A stretch of DNA of 64,000 nucleotides from an uncultured bacterium. GTDB taxonomy: Bacteria > Acidobacteriota > Thermoanaerobaculia > Multivoradales > JAHZIX01. Positions 3-12,170 of the stretch are shown here, piece after piece. The position numbers and the translations under genes are program-made. The notes under the pieces are model-generated. The model was given only the letters and a program-made list of their open reading frames with translations, was not told the origin of the DNA and ran no database searches. The DNA lies in the NCBI GenBank assembly GCA_965368975.1, contig CBDUPA010000003.1, forward strand, positions 320,001-384,000, in the 5' to 3' direction. The first letter of the stretch is position 1. Each line of letters opens with the position of its first letter.

Positions 3-740
3 CGGCCAGAGCACGACGGGCTCACCCTGGCTCAGGAAGTAGGTCTTGCCGCCCACGGGTGCGCCGTCTGCGCGCTGCAGCACGTCGGCGGCCTGCAGGT
101 GCGCACGGGCCGCGTCCTCGACAAAGGTCATGTCGACACGGTTTCGCCCCTCGCCGACCTGGATGAGCTTGCCGGCACGGGCACGTGCCACCAGGCGCGG
201 CACCAGGTGCGGATCCCCGGGGCCCAGAATCAAGTGCGGTCGCAGTGCGACGGTGCGCAGCGTGTCGCTATGTCCCTGCAACACCAGGCGTTCGGCGATC
301 GCCTTGGTGGCTGAGTAGCGATTCTCGTGCCGCTCGGGGTAGGGCAGCGATTCGTCGTGGCCTTGGTGGTCGCTGCCGTCGAAGACCACGCTCGGTGAGC
401 TGGTGAAGACCAGGTGGCGAATACCATGGGTGCGGCAGGCGGTGATGACGTTCTGCGTGCCGACCACGTTGGGCTGATAGAAGCTGTCCCAAGAGCCCCA
501 GACGCCGGCCTTGGCGGCCGTGTGGAAGACCGCGTCGAGGCTCTTGCCGTCGAGAGGCTTGCAGGCGTCGAGGACCGTCCGGGTGTCGGCCAGGTCGCCG
601 CGCACCAAGCTGGCGCCGGCTTGGGTGAGTTCCGGATAGTCGCCGCGCGCGAAGATGGTGACCTCGTCGCCGCGGTCGAGGAGCTGGCGTACGATGTGGC
701 TTCCCAGGAAGCCGCCACCGCCGGTGACCAGGGCTCTCAT
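3..740 (-). CDS. oleD: OleD-like 2-alkyl-3-oxoalkanoate reductase (3-beta-HSD/NAD-dependent epimerase family); 3' end runs off the window
   Basis: Not in the ORF track because it has no stop in the window. Translated by hand from ATG 740: MRALVTGGGGFLGSHIV (Rossmann motif), FHTAAKAGVWG, FTSSPSVVF, YSATK (YxxxK), LRPHLILGPGD. The start overlaps the oleC stop (ATGA). Confidence 0.85.
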   Translation of the reverse strand, partial: MRALVTGGGGFLGSHIVRQLLDRGDEVTIFARGDYPELTQAGASLVRGDLADTRTVLDACKPLDGKSLDAVFHTAAKAGVWGSWDSFYQPNVVGTQNVITACRTHGIRHLVFTSSPSVVFDGSDHQGHDESLPYPERHENRYSATKAIAERLVLQGHSDTLRTVALRPHLILGPGDPHLVPRLVARARAGKLIQVGEGRNRVDMTFVEDAARAHLQAADVLQRADGAPVGGKTYFLSQGEPVVLWP

Positions 741-2443
741 GTCGCGGGTCCTCCCGGGGTCGTTCGACGCACCCGTGGTGCTGCCCAGGCCGCCAGCGCC
801 TCGCGCACGATCTTGGCATTGTGCCGTACATCGACGGGAAACTCGGGGTGGAACAGGAAGTCGTGAATCTTGGCGGCTCGAGGGTGGTCATCGCCGAGGG
901 CCAGGAGTTCGCGGCGTAGGCGCTCCGCCTCGGCACCGCTGGGTGTGCGCCCGTCGAGCAGCTCGACGACCAGCACCGGTCGTTGCCGACCCCGTGGTCC
1001 GGCACCGACCAAGGCGGTACGTCGGACCGCGGGATGCTGGTCGAAGATCGCTTCCAGGGCCGATAGCAGGAGGGCGCCATCTGCCGTCTCGACGCGGTGC
1101 GACTTGCGGCCACAGACCCACAGCCTGCCGTGTGTGTCGACGTAGCCGAGGTCCCCCATACGATGCCACAGGCTACCGTCGGTGGCACGGATCTTGGCGA
1201 GCGCCGTCTGCTGCGGACGATGGAGATACTCGCGCGTGACGATCGAGCCGCGGACCACGATTTCGCCCAGTTCCCCCGCGGGCAGCTCCTCGACTTCGTT
1301 CCAGGTCTCGAGGACGTCGTCGCTGAGGCGGATGATGCGGATGTCGACGTCTCCTAGCGGCCGTCCGACGCAGACCCCACGCCCGGCTTCTGTGGCGCCG
1401 CGTACGTCTGGATCGAGCACCGTAGCGTGATCGACCAGTGTCAGCGGCAGAGCCTCGGTGGCGCCGAAGGGCGTCGCGACCCGACAATCAACCGGCACGA
1501 TACGGCGTAGATCCTCGACCAAGCGTGGGTCGACCGAAGCACCGAAGAGGAAGAGGTGCTGGAGGTAGGACAGGTGGATGTCGCGCGCCAGGCAGTGGTC
1601 CGCCAGTTTGCGCCACACCACCGGTGAGCCGAGGCTGAGCGTCACACCGTGGGTCTCGATGGCCTCCACCAGGCGTGCCGGGTCGACCTTCGCCGGCTGC
1701 CGTGGGTCCATGTCCGGGATCACCGTCGAGACGCCGAGCGCCGGATTGAACAGCGCGAAGATGGGCAGGATGGCGAGGTGGATGTCGCCCTCGCGGATCC
1801 CCATGTCGCCGTGCATCGCCGCCAGCTGAGCTCGAAAGATACCCTGCAGGTAGACGACACCCTTCGGCATGCCGGTCGAACCGGAGGTGAAGGCGACCGC
1901 CGCTTCATCGTCGCTGTCGGTGTCGGCGATGGAGAAGGGGCCCGCCGAGACACCGCTGGCGAGCAACTCCGTCAGCGTGACCCCGCCCCCGAAGAGCCGG
2001 CTGAGCCCCATACCGGCGTGCGTAGCGCGTCGCCGGACCGAGCGAAACGCGGCAGGGAACAGCCGGCTCAGCACGTGCGCCAGTGGAATGCCGATCATCG
2101 ACGTGGGCTCCGTCTCGCGTACGCACTGCAAGAACGCCTTGCGACCCATGCCGGGATCGATCAGCACCGGCACCGCGCCGGCCTTGAGGAGCGCGAAGAT
2201 CACCGCGATCAGCTCGATCCCGGGTCGGAGCATGACCAAGACGCGCTGCCCGCGGTCGAAACCGCGGTGCACCAGGCCGTGGGCATAGGCGTCGGAGAGC
2301 TGGTGCAGCTGCGCGAAGCTCAGCTGTACGAAGCGCGGCCGGTCGTCGCGCGTGCGGCCAGCGGGGAAGAGAACCGCTGGACGGTGGGGCGCCCGCTCGG
2401 CCTGGCGGGCGAAGTCGCGGGCGATGTTGTAGCGGTCGGACAT
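737..2443 (-). CDS. oleC: OleC-like olefin beta-lactone synthetase (AMP-dependent ligase family)
   Basis: AMP-binding motifs FTSGSTGMPKG, TPFGATEALP, HRMGDLG and CGRKSHRV; OleC-typical IDPGMG and C-terminal FPVDVRHNAKI; lies between oleB and oleD. Confidence 0.88.
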   Translation of the reverse strand: MSDRYNIARDFARQAERAPHRPAVLFPAGRTRDDRPRFVQLSFAQLHQLSDAYAHGLVHRGFDRGQRVLVMLRPGIELIAVIFALLKAGAVPVLIDPGMGRKAFLQCVRETEPTSMIGIPLAHVLSRLFPAAFRSVRRRATHAGMGLSRLFGGGVTLTELLASGVSAGPFSIADTDSDDEAAVAFTSGSTGMPKGVVYLQGIFRAQLAAMHGDMGIREGDIHLAILPIFALFNPALGVSTVIPDMDPRQPAKVDPARLVEAIETHGVTLSLGSPVVWRKLADHCLARDIHLSYLQHLFLFGASVDPRLVEDLRRIVPVDCRVATPFGATEALPLTLVDHATVLDPDVRGATEAGRGVCVGRPLGDVDIRIIRLSDDVLETWNEVEELPAGELGEIVVRGSIVTREYLHRPQQTALAKIRATDGSLWHRMGDLGYVDTHGRLWVCGRKSHRVETADGALLLSALEAIFDQHPAVRRTALVGAGPRGRQRPVLVVELLDGRTPSGAEAERLRRELLALGDDHPRAAKIHDFLFHPEFPVDVRHNAKIVREALAAWAAPRVRRTTPGGPAT

Positions 2444-2471
2444 CGTTACTTCAAGAGGCTGTTGCAGAAGG

Positions 2472-3383
2472 CTACTTCAGGAACGGTACCAGCGAGGGCA
2501 CGATCCGTTCGTGGGCGTCTTCGAAGATGTAGTGCCCGGCGTCGGTGAAGACTTCGACCTCCGCGTGCGGGAAGCGCTGCTGCCATTCGGGTAGGAAGTG
2601 CCGGGTGGTGAAGCAGAAGTCCTGATCTCCCCAGTAGATCCGCATCGGCCGCTGCGCCAGCTGGCCCAGGCCGGCGTCGATGGCGTCGAGGGTACGGCGG
2701 GTTGGATGATGCGGCTCGAGCGGGATGTCGCGCACGAAACGATGGACGGCGACGCGGTCCTGCCAGCTGTCATACGGGGCGAGGTACCCGGCACGCACGT
2801 CCTCGGGCAGGTGCTGCGACGTGGCGAAGAGCTGGGCGGCGCGGGCGAAGCCATTGAGCCCACGCACCAGGAAGGCACCGACGGCAGGGTAGCGGCAGAC
2901 ACGGATACGCCAGGGGCAGAAGTCGACGTGGAAGGCGGCGGTGTTGCCGACGACGAGACGGTCGACGCGCTCGGGGTGGCGCGTGGCCCAGCCCATTCCG
3001 ATGGCGCCGCCCCAGTCGTGGACGATCAAGGACGCCCGCTCGACCTCGAGGTGGTCGAGCAGCGCTTCGAGACGCTGGATGTGCAGTTCCAGCGTGTACG
3101 GCGTGCCCTCGGCAGCCGCTGGTGGCTTGTCCGACAGGCCGCAACCCAGGTGGTCCGGAACGATCACGCGGTGATCGGGGGCCAGCGCTGGGATCAGGTG
3201 ACGGAAGTAGAACGACCAGGTCGGGTTGCCGTGCACCAGGACAACGGGCGGCGCTTGGGGGTCGCCTTCGTCGAGATAGTGCAGGCGCCACGGCGGGTGC
3301 GGCGATGCGCCGGGCTCGTCGAGCTGGAAGAAGTGACTCTGAAACGGATAGTGGACACGCCACGGTGCGTTGGGGGAATTCAT
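2472..3383 (-). CDS. oleB: OleB-like beta-lactone decarboxylase (haloalkane dehalogenase-like alpha/beta hydrolase)
   Basis: HGNPTWSF, PDHLGCGLSDKP, nucleophile motif HDWGG, WGDQDFCF and AGHYIFED; directly upstream of oleC. Confidence 0.88.
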   Translation of the reverse strand: MNSPNAPWRVHYPFQSHFFQLDEPGASPHPPWRLHYLDEGDPQAPPVVLVHGNPTWSFYFRHLIPALAPDHRVIVPDHLGCGLSDKPPAAAEGTPYTLELHIQRLEALLDHLEVERASLIVHDWGGAIGMGWATRHPERVDRLVVGNTAAFHVDFCPWRIRVCRYPAVGAFLVRGLNGFARAAQLFATSQHLPEDVRAGYLAPYDSWQDRVAVHRFVRDIPLEPHHPTRRTLDAIDAGLGQLAQRPMRIYWGDQDFCFTTRHFLPEWQQRFPHAEVEVFTDAGHYIFEDAHERIVPSLVPFLK

Positions 3384-3441
3384 GGCGGCGGCAGCGTATC
3401 ACCGCTACCGCCGCTCAGAGCTGGCGTCGCTCAGGATCGGA

Positions 3442-4536
3442 TCACGGTGTCACCACCTCGGTGGCCGGTCGGTTCATGCTCCAGTTGAACCAGAAGGTGT
3501 CGACGCCTGGCAAGCGCTGCACGGTCGATGCGCCCTCGCCGACGAAGCTTGCGGAGGCGGGGTCGAGTCGGGAACCCGACGCGCGGTGCACCCAGGTGCC
3601 GCTGTGCGCTTCGAAGGCGTCGCCTTCGGCCGGCTTCGGTGCCACGAAGGCGGCTGAGCTGCGGTAGATCGCGGCGCCTGCGGGGCGCTGGAGCAGGATC
3701 TGGTGGTCTCCCAGCTGCAACAATACCCCCGATCCGGTGAAGTGCTCGGAGGCTACAGCGTACGGAGTGCCCTCGAGTTCGAAGGCGAAGATGTGGGCTT
3801 TGGCTGACAGGCGAGTGTCCGCCAGCTGGCCATCTCGGAACACTCGATCGGAGGACAGGTAGTTGTCATAGGGATTGCTGTCCGCGTGCTCCTGCCCGCC
3901 GACGGAGAGCACGAGCGTGTGGGGGTAGCGACCCTTCCAGTCGGCCCACTGTGCCTTCTCGCCAATCGTGAGCTCGTCGAGCAGAGTGCCATCGAGATCG
4001 CCGGCGATGGCTTCCCCGTTGAGGATCGGCCAGTAGCTGTCGGTCTCGCGGTCCTGCATCACCAGCGTGGCGTGGATGAGACCGCCGGAGGGTTCGAAGT
4101 GAAGAGTCTTGCCCGCGTAGTTGCGGCCGTACACGACGGCCGTGTTGGCGAGCGGTCACCAGACTGCCGCGATCGGCAGCTCTCCCAGGCGATCGTTGAC
4201 TACTTCGTGCTGGTTCAGCAGGTTCAACGAGTAGGCGCGCGCCTCTCCGTCGAGCGCGATACCGAGGACCCAGGCATCCTCCGGCACGTCGGCTTCGTCA
4301 GCCGTCACGAAGTCGGGAGCGTGGATCGCCGGAATGCCGCCACGCGGTAGCAGCTGCTGGAAGCTGTCCGGCAGATCCGGATGCACTTCGGCACCGCGCA
4401 TTCCTGGCTCAGGAGGCTTGTCACGCACACCTTCGGTCGCGGCGCTCAGAGCACTCGGGCCGAGTGTCAGCAGCAGAGCTGGGAGCAGGGATCGCAGGAC
4501 GTGGCCGAGCGACACTGGGGTGTTTCGTCTGGGCAT
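3442..4536 (-). CDS. DUF3179 domain-containing selenoprotein (secreted), about 364 aa, with an in-frame UGA at 4156-4158 read as Sec
   Basis: Track ORFs 4156..4536 and 3442..4134 are in the same frame and separated by a single TGA: ...HEVVNDRLGELPIAAVW-UGA-PLANTAVVYGR...LVMQDRETDSYW. The UGA falls at the first Cys of the family's CPLC-type motif. N-terminal signal peptide; SECIS-like hairpin follows the UGA. Confidence 0.85.
4124..4158 (-). promoter_or_regulatory. Putative bacterial SECIS element
   Basis: Minus strand reads UGA-ccgcucgccaaca-CGGCCGU-cgugu-ACGGCCG: a perfect 7-bp stem (4124-4142) with a 5-nt loop containing G at position 2, the loop starting 20 nt after the UGA. Confidence 0.7.
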
Positions 4537-4893
4537 GGATACCTCCGAGGGGATGAGTCAGGTCCTTGGGGAGTGGCTGGCCACGGCTTGGTGCACGAGC
4601 AGTACGGTGGTGCCAGGGCGGATGGATTCTCTGTGGAGGCCTATGCTACATTTCTCGCGCTCCTTTCGCTTTCTTTGCTTTTCTGGCAGCGACGACCGAC
4701 TCCGAACCCGCGCTTCTGACGCCTGTGCGGTCAGGACTTTCCGTCGCTCCTGTCCACTCGCTTTCAAACACTACAGTCCGAAGATGTAGGCCGGAATCGT
4801 CCGGATGGCTGGGGCGCTGTCCGCGCTGCGTGAAGCGACTCCGCCTTGCCTGCATCTCAACCCTAGGCCTTTGGAACCAACAAGGAGGAGAGC

Positions 4894-5766
4894 ATGAGGC
4901 CGAATTCATCCGCGATCCGCGTCGTGGGTCTGTTGACGTTGTGTGGTCTGCTGGCGCTGCCGGCGCTGGCCAACACCGGTGTGGCATTCGTCCATGGCAC
5001 CGGCAATCAGACAGATGCCCTGAACGACTACTGGAAGAGTGACTTCGTCAACTCTGTACGCCAGGGATTGTCCAACAGTGCGAACTACACGGTGATCAAC
5101 TGTCAGTTCGAGGAGTACATGTGGGACTCCCAGGCCGCCGGATGCCTGGCGGGCTATCTCTACAACTTCATCACCAGCAAGAACATCGACGACTTGGTGG
5201 TCATCACGCACTCAAATGGTGGCAACGTGATGCGCTGGATCCTGTCCAACCCGACCTGGGACAGCCGCTATCCGACGATCATCAACAACACCCGCTGGGT
5301 CAACGCGCTGGCACCATCGAGCTTGGGCACGCCGCTCGCCGATGCCGTGATGAGTGGCTCGATCTTCGAAGCGGCGGTCGGCTGGTTGCTTGGTTATCAG
5401 AGCGACGCTGTGCGCATGCAGCAGACGTCGTGGATGGCCTACTACAACTCGACCTACCTGCTCGGTACGTCCGGCCGTCCCGCTCTACCGAAGGGTTTCT
5501 GGAACGTTGTTGGTACCGACGTCGAGACCGCGATTTGGGATGGGGACAGCTACTGCGGTGGTTACGACCTGAACCTTGGGCTCGAAGTGACGCAGGCCTG
5601 GCTCGCCAGCTGCTCGGATGGGTTCCTCGAGTGCACTAGCCAGGCGGGAGCCGGCTCGGTCTGGTTCTATGACACCAGCGTGACGGCTGGTGGCGAGCCG
5701 CTGAGCCACAACCAGAGCCGGCGCAAGTGCTTCAACCTCGACGTCATTCTGCGCAACGACCTGTGA
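4894..5766 (+). CDS. Secreted alpha/beta-hydrolase (lipase-like)
   Basis: Signal peptide ending ALA-N; oxyanion motif FVHGTG; nucleophile elbow THSNGG; later SDG and SHNQS candidate Asp/His; strong RBS AAGGAGG. Confidence 0.8.
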   Translation: MRPNSSAIRVVGLLTLCGLLALPALANTGVAFVHGTGNQTDALNDYWKSDFVNSVRQGLSNSANYTVINCQFEEYMWDSQAAGCLAGYLYNFITSKNIDDLVVITHSNGGNVMRWILSNPTWDSRYPTIINNTRWVNALAPSSLGTPLADAVMSGSIFEAAVGWLLGYQSDAVRMQQTSWMAYYNSTYLLGTSGRPALPKGFWNVVGTDVETAIWDGDSYCGGYDLNLGLEVTQAWLASCSDGFLECTSQAGAGSVWFYDTSVTAGGEPLSHNQSRRKCFNLDVILRNDL

Positions 5767-5780
5767 GAAGGAGAGTAGAG

Positions 5781-7067
5781 ATGTCACGCAACTTCGTCTG
5801 GACCTTACCTGTTCTGCTTCTTGCCCTGCTTCTTGGGCTGGCCGTCCTGCCGGCTTCCGCGCAGCGCGAGACTCACGCCTCCCGGACCACCCCTGGTGAT
5901 CTGATCGATCCCGCGGAGATCGCTGTTCCTGCCAATCGCCCCGATGTCAGCCGCGAGGCGGTGACCTTCACCTGGGCGCTCGATCCGGCGCACGAGATCG
6001 GCAAGGACGAGCCGACGTATCCGGTGGCGTATAGCCGGCAATATTGGCTGCGCGTCACGCCCGAAGAGCTGCGTGCAGGTGTGGCTCTACCGACCACCTC
6101 GGCCGGCGCGCTAGTGCGCGTGCAGAGTTTCGACGTCGATGGCGATGCCCGTCCAGTCGACATCGACGCCCTGCGCGTCGCCACCCCCGCCGGCGAGCTC
6201 TTGGTACGTGGCGCGGCGATGGACCTGCTGATCGACGCCGAGAAGATGGACGCCGCGAGCACGCCGTTCGCTACCGGTACCGCAGCCTTCCGGCTGCGCG
6301 GTGACCTGGGAGCGGGGGAGTTCGTGGTCAGCGGTGAGGTTTTCGACGCTGAGAGCCAGCGGGAAGATCCGGGTGCCGACATCGACAGCATCCTGTTCCA
6401 CGTCTTCGAGCCAAACAGTGACGCGGTGCTGGCCCTGGCTGCCAACCAGGGCCACTTTCTGCACAACAGCGTGGCTCGCTTCACGGTCGAGTTGCAAGCT
6501 GAGGACGTCACTTCCGTTGCCCAGATCGACGGCTTTCTCGCCGCGCCTTCCGGCCAGGCCTGGCCGGTGACCTTCACGCCTGCTGCTGACGGTGCCTACG
6601 TGGCGCGCGTGCCGCTGAACGCCAGTGGCGAAGCGGGCTACCGAGGGTTGTGGCAGGTCGAAGCCGTGGTCGAGGGAGACGCGAATGGCCAGCGCGTACG
6701 GCGCGCGGTGCACACGGCCTTCGCCGTCGCACTGCCGACTGCTCGTGTGACGGATGTCGCACGCCAGCGTCAGGACGGTGTCCGCACCGTGGATGTCGGC
6801 GTAGAGGTTGCCGTCGAAGGTCGCTACGAGGTGCGCGCGGTAGTCTATGGCACGAACACCGAAGGGCAGCTACGGCCGCTGGCAGCGGCGCACAGCGCGG
6901 CATGGCTGGAGCCGGGCGAAGGAACCCTGAGCCTGGGCTTCGATGCCCAGGCCCTGGCGCGCGAGGGCTTCGGAGCGCCGTTCGAAGTACGAGATCTGCG
7001 CCTGATCGACCAGGGTCGTATGAGCCTGCTGCAGGAGCAAGCGCGCGGTCCGCGTTTCGATAGCTGA
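5781..7067 (+). CDS. Secreted DUF4785-like Ig-fold protein
   Basis: RBS AAGGAG before ATG 5781; signal peptide; SRQYW, VFEPNS, GRYEVRAVVYG, AAWLEPG and APFEVRDLRLIDQGRM match the DUF4785 pattern as I recall it; 14 bp behind the lipase-like gene. Confidence 0.75.
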   Translation: MSRNFVWTLPVLLLALLLGLAVLPASAQRETHASRTTPGDLIDPAEIAVPANRPDVSREAVTFTWALDPAHEIGKDEPTYPVAYSRQYWLRVTPEELRAGVALPTTSAGALVRVQSFDVDGDARPVDIDALRVATPAGELLVRGAAMDLLIDAEKMDAASTPFATGTAAFRLRGDLGAGEFVVSGEVFDAESQREDPGADIDSILFHVFEPNSDAVLALAANQGHFLHNSVARFTVELQAEDVTSVAQIDGFLAAPSGQAWPVTFTPAADGAYVARVPLNASGEAGYRGLWQVEAVVEGDANGQRVRRAVHTAFAVALPTARVTDVARQRQDGVRTVDVGVEVAVEGRYEVRAVVYGTNTEGQLRPLAAAHSAAWLEPGEGTLSLGFDAQALAREGFGAPFEVRDLRLIDQGRMSLLQEQARGPRFDS

Positions 7068-7114
7068 TTCGCCACGAGGTCGCTGTTTCCCGCAGCGGAA
7101 AGCGAGCTATCAGT

Positions 7115-7147
7115 AAGACCCGGGGAGGTTTCTCCCCGGGTCTTTTT
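7115..7147 (+). terminator. Rho-independent terminator
   Basis: AAGACCCGGGGA-ggtttc-TCCCCGGGTCTT perfect 12-bp stem ending in a T run, 48 bp after the DUF4785 stop. Confidence 0.8.
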
Positions 7148-7402
7148 GCATCTAACCGGATCTGAGCTGTCCAGAAATACAAGATTCAAATATTGTCCAG
7201 GCGCTTCATCGAGCGCTGAGACTGTGCTATCTTCCAGCGCATTGTAGGTTTCGGCAAGAGCGGCGACGGAGTGACTCCCGCCGATGCACTCGCCGCAACT
7301 GATCCTCATCTCCATTAGCGCTGGTCCCTATCTGTTTCGGTATATAACTTGTGGTTCTTCTTGGGTCCAAAGCCGTTCCCCTTCCACATGTAAGGAGACA
7401 TC

Positions 7403-7903
7403 ATGCGTCATTCTCTGCAGGGAAGCGCCGCCTGGCTATTGTGTGCCACCGCGGTCCTCCTCCTCTGTGCTGTCCCGGCGATCGCCGCGGACACCACTTC
7501 TGAAGCAGTTCCCACACCCAACAGTCATGTATCCGAGACCGCGGTCGAAGCCGCGCAGATCCCGGTGCTCGACCTGAGCGGGTTCCTGGCCTTCATCGAC
7601 CCCGAGACCGGTGAGTTCCGGGCGCCGAACGAGCAGGAAGCCGCCGCGCTGGCGCAGGCTCTGCGCTTGCCGCAGCAGGCCCTACAGGCTCGTTCGCTAC
7701 AGGCCCCGACCGTCGAGTCCGTTACGCTCGACAACGGTGTCGCTGCCGAAAGTGTGCTGCTCGATCTGAGCAGCGTCAGCTTCAGCGTCGCCCGTGTGCA
7801 AGCCGATGGCAGCGTTGCGTTCGACTGTGGCATCGACCACGATCACAGCGCGCACACGGCCACCGCGACAGACACCAACACCGCCCAGCCGGGTGAAATG
7901 TGA
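7403..7903 (+). CDS. Small secreted protein (post-PEP-CTERM-1-like domain), partner of the downstream peptidase, copy 1
   Basis: RBS TAAGGAG; signal peptide ending AIA-A; core GFLAFIDPETGEFRAPNEQEAAALAQAL; C-terminal QADGSVAFDCGIDHDH; clear paralog at 9811. Confidence 0.8.
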   Translation: MRHSLQGSAAWLLCATAVLLLCAVPAIAADTTSEAVPTPNSHVSETAVEAAQIPVLDLSGFLAFIDPETGEFRAPNEQEAAALAQALRLPQQALQARSLQAPTVESVTLDNGVAAESVLLDLSSVSFSVARVQADGSVAFDCGIDHDHSAHTATATDTNTAQPGEM

Positions 7904-7920
7904 GACCGGGAGCCAAGACC

Positions 7921-9615
7921 ATGAAAAAGCACTTCGCTCTCGCGCTCCCTCTCGCCCTCCTCGCTCTGCTGACGGTGCCGGCCACGCCGGCTGCCGCTAG
8001 CGCGACGATCTTCGTCAACAACCTGGACGCCCCGGGCGTCGGTTTCAATGATCCCACGCCGGTGGCGCCGATCGGCGGCAACCCCGGTACCACCCTCGGT
8101 GAGCAGCGGCTCAACGTCTTCCAGTTCGCGGCAGACGCTTGGGGTTCGGTGCTGGACAGCGACGCCACGATCACCGTGGGTGCTGTCTTCGTGCCGCTGG
8201 GTTGCAGCCCGTTCGCCGCGACCCTCGGCTCGGCCGGTACCTTGCAGGTATTCTCGTTCAACTCGGCCTTCCAGCCGAACATCATTCCCAACGTTTGGTA
8301 CCACGTGGCTCTGGTCAACGCACTGATCGGTTTCGACGCCACGCCGGGTCCGCCGGACCCGTTCCTGGGGTTCGGTAACGACGAGATCTTCGCTTTCTTC
8401 AACAGCGCGATCGACAACAACCCCAACTGCCTGCCGGGTAACTGGTACTACGGCCTGGACCACGACAACGAGCTGATCGACGTCGACCTGCTGAGCGTCG
8501 TCATGCACGAGTTCGGCCACGGACTGGGCTTCGCCAACTTCACCAACGAGAGCACCGGTGCACCGCTGGGTGGCCGCACGGACATCTTCTCGGTGTACAC
8601 CTACGACAAGACCCTGGGCAAGACCTGGGCGCAGATGACCAACGCCGAGCGCCAGTTCTCGGCTGTCAACACCGGTAACGTGGTGTGGGTCGGCCCGAAC
8701 GTCACGGCCAACGCCTCGCGCTATCTTGCGCCGGGCACGGAAGTTGTGAGCAGCGTCGGCACCTTCGAGGCGCAGGGCGCCTTCTTCGGTCCGACTCTGG
8801 ACTTGACCGGCGTCAGTGGCAGCATCGAGCTGGCCGATGACGGCATCGGTGTGGCGACGGATGCTTGCGAGCCGCTGAACAACAGCTTCGCCGGCAACAT
8901 CGCGCTGGTCGACCGTGGCGGCTGCTCCTTCGTCCTGAAGGTGCAGAACGCCGAGGCGGCGGGTGCCAGTGGTGTCATCGTGGCCAACAATCAGCCGACC
9001 GGCCTGCCGCCGATGGGTGGTTCGACGGCGGTAGGTATTCCTTCCGTCGGCATCTCGTTCGACGACGGCAGTCTGGTCAAGGCCAACCTGCCGGGTGTCA
9101 GCGCGACGCTGCGTCAGAGCACCACCGGTCGCACGGGTACCGACATCAACGGCCTGGTGCGGTTGTACGCACCGCCGAGCGTCGCTTCTGGCTCGTCGCT
9201 GTCGCACTGGGATACCTCGGCGACGCCGAACCTGCTGATGGAGCCCTTCATCAGTGACGACCTGACGCCGGCTGTCGATGTCGACCTGACCCGCCACCTG
9301 TTCCAGGACCTCGGTTGGGAGCTGTGTGACAGCGACGGTGACGGCGTGCCGAACGCGGACGACGCCTGCCCGGCTTCTGATCTGGGTGCCACGGTCGTGA
9401 TCGACGGCTGCGACAGCGGCGTCGGCAACCTGCTGTTCGCCGATGGCTGCACGATCACCGACCTGGTGCTCGGCTGTGCCGACGGTGCCGGCAACCATGG
9501 GCAGTTCGTCAGCTGCGCGACCCAGACCGGCAATGGCCTGGTCGCCGCCGGTGTGATCAGCGGTTCCGACAAGGGCGCGATCACCAGTTGCGCTGCGCAG
9601 TCGAGCCTCCCCTGA
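7921..9615 (+). CDS. Secreted PA-domain zinc metallopeptidase (leishmanolysin/M8-like topology) with TSP3-like repeat and Cys-rich tail, copy 1
   Basis: Signal peptide MKKHFALAL; MHEFGHGLGF zinc motif; PA domain (DACEPL...IALVDRGGCSFVLKVQNAEAAGASGVIVAN); distal SHWD...LLMEP; DSDGDGVPNADDACP Ca-binding repeat. Confidence 0.85.
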   Translation: MKKHFALALPLALLALLTVPATPAAASATIFVNNLDAPGVGFNDPTPVAPIGGNPGTTLGEQRLNVFQFAADAWGSVLDSDATITVGAVFVPLGCSPFAATLGSAGTLQVFSFNSAFQPNIIPNVWYHVALVNALIGFDATPGPPDPFLGFGNDEIFAFFNSAIDNNPNCLPGNWYYGLDHDNELIDVDLLSVVMHEFGHGLGFANFTNESTGAPLGGRTDIFSVYTYDKTLGKTWAQMTNAERQFSAVNTGNVVWVGPNVTANASRYLAPGTEVVSSVGTFEAQGAFFGPTLDLTGVSGSIELADDGIGVATDACEPLNNSFAGNIALVDRGGCSFVLKVQNAEAAGASGVIVANNQPTGLPPMGGSTAVGIPSVGISFDDGSLVKANLPGVSATLRQSTTGRTGTDINGLVRLYAPPSVASGSSLSHWDTSATPNLLMEPFISDDLTPAVDVDLTRHLFQDLGWELCDSDGDGVPNADDACPASDLGATVVIDGCDSGVGNLLFADGCTITDLVLGCADGAGNHGQFVSCATQTGNGLVAAGVISGSDKGAITSCAAQSSLP

Positions 9616-9669
9616 GCCTTCCATCCAGCGGCTAGTCGACCCTGACTTGGGGTAGACTGCCGATGAAGT

Positions 9670-9696
9670 GAAGGGCGGTCCTCGTGGCCGCCCTTC
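9670..9696 (+). terminator. GC-rich hairpin after peptidase 1 (possible terminator or processing stem)
   Basis: GAAGGGCGGT...GCCGCCCTTC inverted repeat followed by a pyrimidine-rich tract. Confidence 0.5.
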
Positions 9697-9810
9697 CTTG
9701 CCTCCGATCTGTTCCCTTGTCCCTCCAGCCGGTTCTCTCAAAGTTGCTCGTGGTTGCGATGTGTTTCCCTTTGGGTCCACCCAACTCACTTCCGATGTAA
9801 GGAGAGAACC

Positions 9811-10365
9811 ATGCGTCATTGCATGCAGGGACGTGCCGCTTCGTGGTCGCTTTGGACCGCGGCGGTACTACTGACGCTCGGTGTGACGTCGGCCCGTGCC
9901 GACGAGGCACTAGCAGCCACGAGCGCCGACGAGGCACTAGTAGCCACAAGCGCCGACGAGGCACTAGCAGCCACGAGCGCTGACGAGGCCACCCCAGTAG
10001 CCGAGGTCGCACCAGCGACCCTCGATTTGGGGGGCTTCCTGGCCTTCGCCGATCCCGAGACCGGCGAAGTGCGCGCGCCCAACGCTGAAGAAGCTGCCGC
10101 GCTCGCCCAGGCGCTGGGGAAGCGCGGTGTGCAACTGCACGCCCGCTCCGTCCAGCCGATCCAGGTCCGGACCTTGCCCAACGGCATGGAGGCGGCACTG
10201 CTGGGTCTGGAGTCGGTGAACTTCAGCTTTGCCCAGATCCAGGCGGACGGTTCCGTCGCGTTCACCTGTGGTCTGGATCACGACCACAGCGAAGATGTGT
10301 CCGCCCCTCGGACGGACAACCGCCAGGTCCATCAGCAACGCCGCGCCACGCGGCCCGTGATGTGA
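9811..10365 (+). CDS. Small secreted protein (post-PEP-CTERM-1-like domain), copy 2
   Basis: RBS TAAGGAG before ATG 9811; signal peptide ending ARA-D; GFLAFADPETGEVRAPNAEEAAALAQAL and QADGSVAFTCGLDHDH, matching the 7403 protein. Confidence 0.8.
   Translation: MRHCMQGRAASWSLWTAAVLLTLGVTSARADEALAATSADEALVATSADEALAATSADEATPVAEVAPATLDLGGFLAFADPETGEVRAPNAEEAAALAQALGKRGVQLHARSVQPIQVRTLPNGMEAALLGLESVNFSFAQIQADGSVAFTCGLDHDHSEDVSAPRTDNRQVHQQRRATRPVM
9898..9989 (+). repeat. 27-bp in-frame tandem repeat (3 copies plus a partial), encoding ADEALAATS
   Basis: GCCGACGAGGCACTAGCAGCCACGAGC at 9898, 9925 (2 mismatches) and 9952, with a partial copy at 9979. Confidence 0.9.
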
Positions 10366-10376
10366 GGAGCCACGCC

Positions 10377-12170
10377 ATGAAGAATCTACGCTTCCTCCTC
10401 ACAGCCCTTGTCCTCGTCGCTCTGCTCGCGGCTCCGTCGGCTCCGGCCTTCGGCGACGCGACCTTCATCATCAACAACCTGGATCCACCGGGTGCAGGTT
10501 TCAACGATCCGACACCGGTGGCACCGGTGGGCGGCAACCCGGGGGTGACCTTGGGCGAACAGCGCTTGAACGTCTTCGAGTACGCTGCGGCCGCTTGGGG
10601 ACAGGTGATCGACAGCGACGTTGACATCGTCGTCGGTGCCGTCTTCGTGCCTCTGGGTTGCAGCCCCTTCGCGGCGACCTTGGGTTCGGCCGGCTCGCTG
10701 CAGGTCTTCGCCTTTCCGCCGGGCTTCCTGCCCAACGTCGTGCCGGAAGTCTGGTACCACTCGGCTCTGACCAATGCTCTGGCTGGCTTCGATGCCACTC
10801 CCGGTCCGCCGGACCCGTTCCTTGGCTTCGGCAACGACGAGATCTTCGCCTTCTTCAACAGCGCGATCGACAACAATCCCGACTGCTTGCCCGGCAACTG
10901 GTACTACGGTTTGGATCACAACAACGACCCCGTGGACGTCGACCTGCTGTCGGTGGTGATGCACGAGTTTGCGCATGGCCTTGGTTTTGCCAACTTCACC
11001 AACGAGACGACCGGTGCCCCGCTGGGCGGCCGTACCGATATCTTCTCCGTATTCACTCTCGATACGACGCAGAACAAGACCTGGGCCGAGATGACCGACG
11101 CCGAGCGTCAAGCTTCGGCGATCAATGATGGCAACGTGGTGTGGAACGGCGCCAACGTGACCGACAACGCACCTCGTTACTTGAACGCGCGGCCGCAGCT
11201 GGTGGTCAACAAGCCGTCAGCGTACCGGGCCACCTACCCAGCGCAGGACGCTGAGTTCGGGCCCGCGCTGTCGGACTTCGGCAAGCTCGGCAAGCTGGTG
11301 CTGGCGGACGACGGAGTCGGCGAGGCCGCCGATGCCTGTGAGCCGCTGACCAACAACGTCAATCGTCGCATCGTCCTGGTCGATCGTGGTTCCTGCTCCT
11401 TCGTGCAGAAGGTGCTGAACGCGCAGGCCGGCGGCGCGCGCGCGGTGGTCGTCGCCAACAACCTGCCGGACGGTCTTCCGCCGATGGGCGGCGCCGATCC
11501 GACGGTCACCATCCCGTCCATCGGCGTCTCGCAGGCGGCGGGTGACGATCTCAAGGCGGCACTGGCGTCACTCGACGATCTACGTGTCACGGCAACTGAT
11601 GACGAGAGCGCAGATGCCGACGAGGCGGACAAGTTCTTCTTCGGCGGTAGCGTCGTGGTGACCTTGAACCGCAACCAGGATCTGCGGATCGGTGCCAACG
11701 ATGCCGGGCAGGTGTTGATCTACGCGCCGCCGGTCGTGCAGTCGGGCTCGTCGCTGTCGCACTGGGACACGTCGGCGACGCCGAACCTACTGATGGAGCC
11801 CTTCATCAGTGATGACCTGACACCGGCTGTCGATGTCGATCTGACGCGGCACCTGTTCCAGGACATCGGCTGGCTCCTGGCCGACAGTGATGCTGACGGT
11901 GTGCCCAACGCCGACGACATGTGCTCGGCATCGGACCTGACGCCGACGGTGGTGATTGATGGCTGCGACAGCGGTGCCGCCAACGTGCTCCTGGACGATG
12001 GCTGCAGCGTCAGTGACGAGTTGCAGCAGTGTGCGGACGAAGCCAACAACCACGGTCAGTACGTGCTGTGCGTGGCGGCGAAGACCACGACCTTGTGGCT
12101 GTTCCACATCATCAGCGGCTCGGACGCACTAGCGATCAACGCTTGTGCGCTGCAGTCGAGCCTGCCCTGA
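10377..12170 (+). CDS. Secreted PA-domain zinc metallopeptidase, copy 2
   Basis: RBS GAGGAG; signal peptide MKNLRFLL; MHEFAHGLGF; PA domain IVLVDRGSCSFVQKVLNAQAGGA; SHWDTSATPNLLMEP; TSP3-like DSDADGVPNADDMC; ends QSSLP like copy 1. Confidence 0.85.
   Translation: MKNLRFLLTALVLVALLAAPSAPAFGDATFIINNLDPPGAGFNDPTPVAPVGGNPGVTLGEQRLNVFEYAAAAWGQVIDSDVDIVVGAVFVPLGCSPFAATLGSAGSLQVFAFPPGFLPNVVPEVWYHSALTNALAGFDATPGPPDPFLGFGNDEIFAFFNSAIDNNPDCLPGNWYYGLDHNNDPVDVDLLSVVMHEFAHGLGFANFTNETTGAPLGGRTDIFSVFTLDTTQNKTWAEMTDAERQASAINDGNVVWNGANVTDNAPRYLNARPQLVVNKPSAYRATYPAQDAEFGPALSDFGKLGKLVLADDGVGEAADACEPLTNNVNRRIVLVDRGSCSFVQKVLNAQAGGARAVVVANNLPDGLPPMGGADPTVTIPSIGVSQAAGDDLKAALASLDDLRVTATDDESADADEADKFFFGGSVVVTLNRNQDLRIGANDAGQVLIYAPPVVQSGSSLSHWDTSATPNLLMEPFISDDLTPAVDVDLTRHLFQDIGWLLADSDADGVPNADDMCSASDLTPTVVIDGCDSGAANVLLDDGCSVSDELQQCADEANNHGQYVLCVAAKTTTLWLFHIISGSDALAINACALQSSLP

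Follow-up and report, generated by a model that had tools for sequence, protein, structure and literature searches.

Does the TGA triplet that interrupts the frame of a DUF3179 gene from an uncultured acidobacterium end the protein, or is it decoded as selenocysteine (Sec)? The gene lies in a stretch of 64,000 nucleotides from a genome of the class Thermoanaerobaculia (contig CBDUPA010000003.1 of assembly GCA_965368975.1, positions 320,001 to 384,000), hereafter called the window. Under translation table 11 it appears as two open reading frames (ORFs) in the same frame, 4536..4156 (126 aa) and 4134..3442 (230 aa, starting at an internal GTG). The original prediction, made from the letters of the window, had joined the two across the TGA into one continuous protein and had proposed Sec recoding in place of a split gene. 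Our follow-up supports this proposal with the Sec machinery of the genome, the TGA/Cys distribution at the column concerned and a conserved hairpin. Judged from sequence, it is very probable that the locus is a single uninterrupted gene, which encodes a presumably exported DUF3179 protein and in which codon 127, a UGA, is decoded as selenocysteine. The positions of its features are collected in Table 1.

Reading through the sole internal TGA (4158-4156, codon 127) gives a product of 126 + 1 + 237 = 364 residues, in which the sequence spanning the UGA is ...HEVVNDRLGELPIAAVW-U-PLANTAVVYGR.... The continuous 364-residue frame of the original prediction thus holds; it lies on the minus strand and reads ...LNLLNQHEVVNDRLGELPIAAVW-U-PLANTAVVYGR.... 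The read-through protein matched the DUF3179 model PF11376 with 191.1 bits (cut-off 27, E 3.8e-56) and the match spans the TGA, while NCBIfam had no family model for the protein. It contains no cysteine (the two C of our query sequence, P0001, are TGA codons written as C), so that the earlier description of a UxxA motif with neither a resolving Cys nor any other Cys was correct; both traits are typical of the clade. The N-terminus carries arginines at positions 3, 4 and 15, a hydrophobic stretch at about residues 13-27 (Kyte-Doolittle values up to 1.99) and then ALSAAT. The AlphaFold predicted local distance difference test score (pLDDT) is below 50 across most of residues 1-46, and a lipobox Cys is absent from the putative signal peptide. 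On the basis of these sequence features the N-terminus is probably a signal peptide of the general secretory type and the protein is probably exported.

To place the UGA column among relatives we searched a protein collection, which returned 115 matches (P0002-P0116), and aligned them at positions 127 and 130. Out of the 87 matches that cover the column, 82 have Cys there, as had been anticipated for DUF3179 homologues, and the other five have S, S, S, H and D. When the query is counted with the matches, 43 sequences have the C..C pattern at positions 127 and 130, with the classical Y-C-P-L-C-N motif and about 30-35% identity (several are named from Acidimicrobiia), and 39 including the query have C..A, with W-C-P-L-A-N and 40-52% identity; 38 full-length database homologues read W-C-P-L-A-N. 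A further 29 aligned sequences are without position 127, and 27 of these are about 200-230 aa long and begin after the column, which fits truncated calls of UGA-containing genes.

The corresponding DNA gave the same picture. A search of 41 related genomes gave 13 best matches, of which 12 contain exactly one TGA and the thirteenth (G010) contains none, having TGT at the column. A scan of species-representative genomes added 55 further loci, most of them labelled Acidobacteriota (including Thermoanaerobaculia, Vicinamibacteria and Holophagae) and the remainder Calditrichota, Krumholzibacteriota, Planctomycetales, Deferribacteres and Polyangiaceae. The motif W-[U/C]-P-x-A was found in 68 of 75 loci (L021-L095), those without it being L035-L040 and L063. 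Seven pairs of loci were identical DNA fetched twice, leaving 61 distinct contexts. At the column 57 of these have TGA (the window's own included), two have TGT and two TGC; all six of L022-L025, L027 and L029 have TGA. Conservation of the TGA in related genomes, a check named in the original prediction, was borne out by both sets. Because the column alternates only with Cys codons, and because both the frame and the Pfam match cross the TGA, these data support Sec decoding.

The original prediction had also named selA, selB, selC and selD as genes to look for, and all four are present in the genome (7.1 Mb in 59 contigs, 99.3% complete). The tRNA-Sec was found with 73 bits and was called SeC with anticodon tca by ARAGORN, and selA (445 bits), selB (344 bits) and selD (344 bits) all scored above their curated cut-offs. 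The selD gene (locus L018, at about 1531, on G000:C6) itself has one in-frame TGA (...LATSGG-U-AAKVGPGDL), closely followed on its 3' side by a GC-rich hairpin, AGGUCC-GGG-GGACCU. TGA terminates six of seven ORFs checked at 737-12170, the terminator of the DUF3179 gene included, and the seventh ends in TAG. This indicates that TGA is not reassigned genome-wide.

A selenocysteine insertion sequence (SECIS) is expected just 3' of a bacterial Sec codon. The hairpin described in the original prediction, a perfect stem CGGCCGU/ACGGCCG with the loop CGUGU and an early G in that loop, is present at 4142-4124. The interval from the UGA to the stem is 13 nt (CCGCUCGCCAACA) and that from the UGA to the apical loop 20 nt, the G stands at loop position 2 and is followed by U, and the hairpin core has a minimum free energy of -11.3 kcal/mol. 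The bacterial SECIS model given in PMC13188914 (Fig. 2 legend) has a loop of 3-9 nt on an upper stem of 4-16 bp, a G within the first two loop positions that is usually followed by G or U, a UGA-loop spacing of 16-37 nt and a free energy no higher than -7.5 kcal/mol. The window hairpin agrees with all four published criteria as set out there.

We then compared the hairpin in a gap-free alignment of 51 distinct Sec orthologues. Stem cells are paired in 91.6% of cases, as opposed to 24-58% (57.7% at the highest) for slid positions of the 3' partner, and none of 500 shuffles matched the observed pairing score or the covariation score. Pair 21-31 is broken in none of the orthologues, being CG in 42, UA in 8 and UG in 1. 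The UA cases combine a synonymous Ala change, GCC to GCU, with a Gly-to-Ser change, GGC to AGC, in all 8 Ser forms. The peptide encoded over the hairpin, PLANTAVVY, is kept in 41 of the 51 Sec forms, whereas NTAVVY occurs in just 6 of 38 Cys forms and varies freely there; this difference fits a constraint at the RNA level that acts on top of the coding constraint. Of the four Cys-form DNAs, three fold weakly (-3.2 to -5.7 kcal/mol) and one, L031, a close relative of a Sec form, keeps the stem (-7.1 kcal/mol).

Several observations weigh against giving the hairpin too much importance. Counting perfect stems of at least 7 bp with bacterial SECIS geometry on both strands and in any frame, 22 of the 1458 TGA triplets of the window (about 1.5%) precede a comparable hairpin, and the 81-nt region folds no better than its shuffles (z = 0.10). 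The hairpin alone is consequently weak evidence and its support comes from its conservation. The conservation has its own limits. At pair 20-32, 24 of the 51 orthologues (the Asp forms) have C.A, an internal mismatch that departs from the bacterial SECIS consensus and leaves these 19-nt cores at only -4 to -5 kcal/mol. Only 22 of the 51 cores reach -7.5 kcal/mol, and the RNAalifold consensus retains only three of the seven pairs. Moreover the stem overlaps conserved codons, so its conservation is partly driven by the protein, and the sequences are related, so the eight compensatory cases may represent few events.

Could the TGA nevertheless be a true stop, the locus being a pseudogene, a split gene with products of 126 and 230 aa, or an assembly error? 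The presence of two table 11 ORFs, the GTG at 4134 that could start the second of them and the 230-aa fragment standing as a called protein in a public collection (P0002) are what such a reading would predict. That GTG, however, is part of the hairpin loop, and a protein started there would be left without a signal peptide and without half of the N-terminal domain. A stop is also at odds with TGA recurring at this position in 57 of the 61 distinct contexts, which belong to several phyla by record title, with the finding of only Cys codons otherwise, and with a frame and Pfam match that run on past the triplet. We consider a true stop extremely improbable, the least probable of the explanations weighed here. 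Read-through without Sec, by near-cognate insertion of Trp or Cys or through a reassigned code, would likewise yield the full-length protein. The UGA is followed by C in every one of the 51 orthologues, and UGA-C is a poor terminator and leaky, which suits such a mechanism. It accords badly, however, with the use of TGA as terminator in six of the seven ORFs checked, with a complete Sec machinery in the genome and with a column that alternates only with Cys codons, and a conserved hairpin at SECIS distance would then be superfluous. This too is very unlikely, and we retain Sec decoding of codon 127.

Table 1. Features of the probable DUF3179 selenoprotein gene and its surroundings, in coordinates of the 64,000-nucleotide window.
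Feature	Position	Strand	Basis and remarks
Whole coding sequence, DUF3179 selenoprotein	3442..4536	minus	364 codons plus terminal TGA 3444-3442; ORF list, frame translated across the internal TGA
UGA codon 127, read as selenocysteine, motif W-U-P-L-A-N	4156..4158	minus	Cys column in homologues, TGA in orthologues
SECIS hairpin, 7-bp stem CGGCCGU/ACGGCCG, 5-nt loop CGUGU	4124..4142	minus	Sequence, folding, pairing in orthologues
Putative Shine-Dalgarno-like GGAGG	4542..4546	minus	Inferred from the sequence; 5 nt upstream of ATG 4536-4534
Probable Sec-type (general secretory) signal peptide, residues 1 to ~33	4438..4536	minus	Charged N-region, hydrophobic core, ALSAAT; low pLDDT
DUF3179 domain, residues 66-358	3463..4341	minus	Pfam PF11376 match, model positions 2-291 of 292
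N-terminal beta-domain, residues 96-197, holding Sec127	3946..4251	minus	Structure-model searches; probably Rieske-like, no cluster ligands

The clade to which the protein belongs is characterized by the motif U/C-x-x-A with a single redox residue, position 130 being Ala in 35 of 35 alignment rows. Exactly one Cys is present in the mature domain of 35 of the 38 Cys-form relatives, and two in all 43 CxxC relatives. Since the Cys forms keep one Cys and the CxxC relatives two, the first motif position is the essential one. Residues common to the CxxA (38) and CxxC (43) groups are Y102, E111, N114, D115, C/U127, P128, L129, N131 and R138, together with D162, T165, W169, Y226, D240, R242, D346, W349 and W352.

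A quick maximum-likelihood tree was computed from 93 rows, comprising 47 Sec forms, 38 Cys forms and a CxxC outgroup of 8, from which L072, L088, L090, L091 and L093 (too short) and three duplicate proteins were omitted. The Sec forms make up a basal grade, inside which are nested one Cys-only clade of 34 rows (92 in the Shimodaira-Hasegawa-like approximate likelihood ratio test, SH-aLRT) and three isolated Cys lineages, and at least four state changes are required on the tree. On these sequences the clade seems to have started out with Sec and to have changed to Cys on at least four occasions. Rooted on the outgroup, the tree would read as one gain of Sec accompanied by loss of the second Cys and then several returns to Cys, a direction that we infer. 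Two genomes of one genus (g9) disagree at the column, with TGT in L031 / L067 and TGA in L030 / L074; the Cys form keeps the hairpin (-7.1 kcal/mol), and this looks like a recent switch from Sec to Cys. Three records, L061 (Polyangiaceae), L049 (Planctomycetales) and L053 (Deferribacteres), fall within Acidobacteriota or Calditrichota clades, which could reflect gene transfer or mislabelled bins.

Two paralogues were found in the same genome. One (L096, 1202-2818 of that locus, minus strand, on G000:C14) is a second UGA-containing DUF3179-like gene with the motif W-U-P-I-D-H and no resolving Cys. It encodes two tandem N-domain-like repeats and, near the N-terminus, an EF-hand-like segment (DADRDG), and a similar hairpin follows its UGA over G-V-V-Y codons; its relatives have the same tandem arrangement, some of them with TGA. 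The other (L097, 720-2342 of that locus, plus strand, on G000:C22) encodes 540 aa with a classical C-T-L-C motif and contains no TGA. UxxA, UxxD and CxxC forms thus coexist in one genome. NCBIfam had no family for either paralogue.

We also examined structure models. The AlphaFold model of the whole protein has a mean pLDDT of 86 and a predicted template modelling score (pTM) of 0.82. A Foldseek search of the whole model against the PDB returned no match at E 0.001 or better. An exhaustive VIA-align search with the same model gave 3gce_A as best match (Z 6.9, root-mean-square deviation (rmsd) 3.0, 94 residues aligned, range 96-197), and chains with Rieske domains fill nearly all of ranks 1-31. 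When the N-domain was refolded alone with 53 sequences (pLDDT 94.4), the best VIA-align match was 2qpz_A (Z 8.0, rmsd 3.2, 92 residues aligned of a 103-residue chain) and ranks 1-42 were all Rieske-domain proteins by title. The top Foldseek matches of the N-domain were Rieske ferredoxins as well, the best being 5bok (E 0.037, probability 0.92). These models point to a Rieske-like fold without cluster ligands for residues 96-197, an assignment that we call probable only, because the scores sit at the caution line of the tool. The resemblance extends to Rieske ferredoxin domains and to the cluster-less small subunit NirD, with Z 8.0, 7.8 and 7.6 for 2qpz_A, 1vm9_A and 3c0d_A (rmsd 3.2, 2.7 and 3.6 over 92, 91 and 98 residues, respectively). 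Unlike Rieske domains the window protein has no Cys-x-His / Cys-x-x-His ligands and, lacking cluster ligands, it is not a Rieske protein.

Sequence comparison did not pick up this likeness. The Pfam Rieske family PF00355 gave no match even at E up to 10, a sequence search of solved structures gave 0 matches at E up to 10, and hhalign against 24 Rieske domains from related genomes gave a probability of 3.2%, with the alignment placed on the C-terminal domain. There, within residues 258-364 (3445-3765), the stretch GTWVHRASGSRLDPASASF was aligned with the Rieske CPWHGW-x-F-D..G segment at that 3.2% probability; the C-terminal domain may be another Rieske-like domain in degenerate form, or the alignment may be meaningless. 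From strand order and alignment ranges in the models, Sec127 would be placed in a hairpin turn that precedes the strand running into the first ligand loop, outside the ligand loops, and its turn appears to adjoin the start of the strand carrying E111, N114 and D115. We also considered the spacing His110-x16-Sec127 as a counterpart of the Rieske CxH-x(15-17)-CxxH spacing and rejected it as a coincidence, since His110 is unconserved in the CxxC group and strand order puts Sec127 outside the ligand loops.

How would such a protein be made and what might it do? SelB with Sec-tRNA(Sec) would bind the hairpin CGGCCGU-CGUGU-ACGGCCG and deliver Sec at the UGA, whose invariant UGA-C context is a poor terminator, in competition with release factor 2, and the product would be exported by means of its N-terminal signal peptide. 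By analogy, the lone selenol could act outside the cytoplasm as a catalytic redox nucleophile, set in the invariant W-U-P-L-A-N turn of the Rieske-like beta-domain, a role that we find plausible without quite calling it probable. During turnover the nucleophile would pass through a selenenic acid or a selenenyl-sulfide intermediate. We propose that an external thiol or a thioredoxin-like partner would regenerate it, because the protein lacks the resolving Cys that is present in the classical CxxC relatives. Against this part of the interpretation stands the fact that redox function and export are argued by analogy, with no conserved neighbour that indicates a pathway.

The same Sec-decoded gene might instead supply a selenol that binds a metal or metalloid as ligand, such as a soft metal ion captured in the periplasm. 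The CxxC of the classical relatives is also a metal-binding motif, acidic or polar residues (E111, N114, D115, D162, T165, D240 and D346) are invariant in both subfamilies, and review tables place the family among metal-related selenoproteins from the same 2007 study. One locus (L030) even has a CusF-like neighbour. That is the only metal-related neighbour among 55 loci, however, and one Sec that has no second Cys beside it would make a poorer soft-metal site than CxxC. Pairs of Sec and Cys forms moreover mostly mark catalytic redox sites. We therefore think a metal-ligand role rather unlikely and keep the redox nucleophile as the preferred, if tentative, function. More doubtful still is the wider proposal that the W-[U/C]-P-L-A-N clade constitutes a distinct class of extracytoplasmic enzyme, with a cluster-less Rieske-like domain, one selenol, Sec as the ancestral state and Cys reached at least four times. 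If it were true, the resolving Cys would have been lost in connection with the use of Sec, a catalytic cycle on one residue would become feasible in an oxidising periplasm through the selenol, and the clade would use an external reductant or act on a substrate that no known selenoenzyme handles.

The neighbourhood of the gene was surveyed by clustering 216 flanking ORFs from 55 loci with BLAST. No conserved partner gene emerged, as no ORF family occurs in more than 5 of the 55 loci besides fragments of the gene itself. A Pfam scan of the 126 flanking ORFs that lie within 1.5 kb and have at least 130 aa yielded miscellaneous neighbours: a Na/sulfate symporter at 5 loci, an extracytoplasmic function (ECF) sigma factor at 4, a Na/H exchanger at 3, a PDZ protein at 3 and CusF at 1. 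A protein-atlas query with the natural Cys homologue P0005 gave a single match at 0.75 and was uninformative.

In the window itself, three genes resembling an oleB/C/D set with no adjacent oleA lie directly downstream on the same strand (3-3383, minus). These encode an alpha/beta hydrolase of the haloalkane-dehalogenase type (2472-3383), an AMP-binding enzyme (737-2443) that scores 569 bits with the olefin beta-lactone synthetase model (below its cut-off of 900) and 623 bits with PRK09274 (above its cut-off), and a protein cut by the window end (3-740) with 289 bits to the 2-alkyl-3-oxoalkanoate reductase OleD. Such a set was found near 0 of 54 other loci; L041 has only an AMP-binding ORF and L069 only an alpha/beta hydrolase. 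Two genes are transcribed divergently on the plus strand. The first (4894-5766) encodes 290 aa with a hydrophobic N-terminus, possibly secreted, and a serine-hydrolase-like motif T-H-S-N-G, without a Pfam match; the second (5727-7067) encodes a three-domain DUF4785 protein.

The window gene stands in public protein sets only as the truncated 230-aa call P0002. Dozens of its relatives are likewise truncated there, mostly from Acidobacteriota (including Thermoanaerobaculia) and otherwise from Calditrichota or under other labels. Corrected calls would add a widespread exported selenoprotein to those selenoproteomes. The clade also provides a natural set of Sec and Cys variants (57 and 4 contexts, respectively) of a protein that has just one redox residue, which suits the question of what selenium buys over sulfur, and the Rieske-like N-domain is a first structural handle on DUF3179. 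The understanding of Sec decoding itself is unchanged by the finding.

DUF3179 selenoproteins are a known kind, since both reviews and NCBI names record them, in agreement with the earlier statement that some family members are annotated as selenoproteins. The tables of two reviews list DUF3179 as a selenoprotein family with the motif UxxC/T (PMC9312934, PMC13188914), and both credit Zhang and Gladyshev 2007 (PMC1976440). In the available text of PMC1976440 the new families are named YHS, putative redox protein, OS_HP1-3 and COG1810, not DUF3179, and because these family names differ the link to that study rests on the reviews. The papers naming DUF3179 gave, in their main text (supplements lay outside the search), no description of the UxxA form or of a DUF3179 structure; in one of them, apart from the two reviews, a DUF3179 protein appears just as a table entry. 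A broader literature search turned up nothing pertinent. With the catalogued proteins the window protein shares the Pfam domain, Sec as the first residue of a C-P-L-C-type motif and a SECIS just downstream. It differs from the tabulated UxxC/T in reading U-P-L-A with no Cys, but the tabulated motif is descriptive and the family is defined by the Pfam domain. What is new here is an uncalled family member, and its Cys-free UxxA form is a minor variant.

Three proteins named 'DUF3179 domain-containing (seleno)protein' by NCBI, P0010, P0020 and P0047, belong to the same W-C-P-L-A clade at 42-49% identity. P0010 and P0020 read W-C-P-L-A-N and P0047 reads W-C-P-L-A-M; the '(seleno)protein' name is generic for the family, and P0020 is a Cys form because the corresponding locus, L050, has TGC. 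Compared with CxxC thiol-disulfide oxidoreductases, the window protein is without a second redox residue and has Ala at position 130. A U-x-x-(non-Cys) pattern derived from two-Cys families is also found in OsmC-like (UxxT) and AhpC/TSA (UxxS) selenoproteins as tabulated in the reviews. Their folds and families are unrelated to DUF3179 and the likeness is in the motif only, but the shared pattern supports the analogy with a redox site that works with a single selenol.

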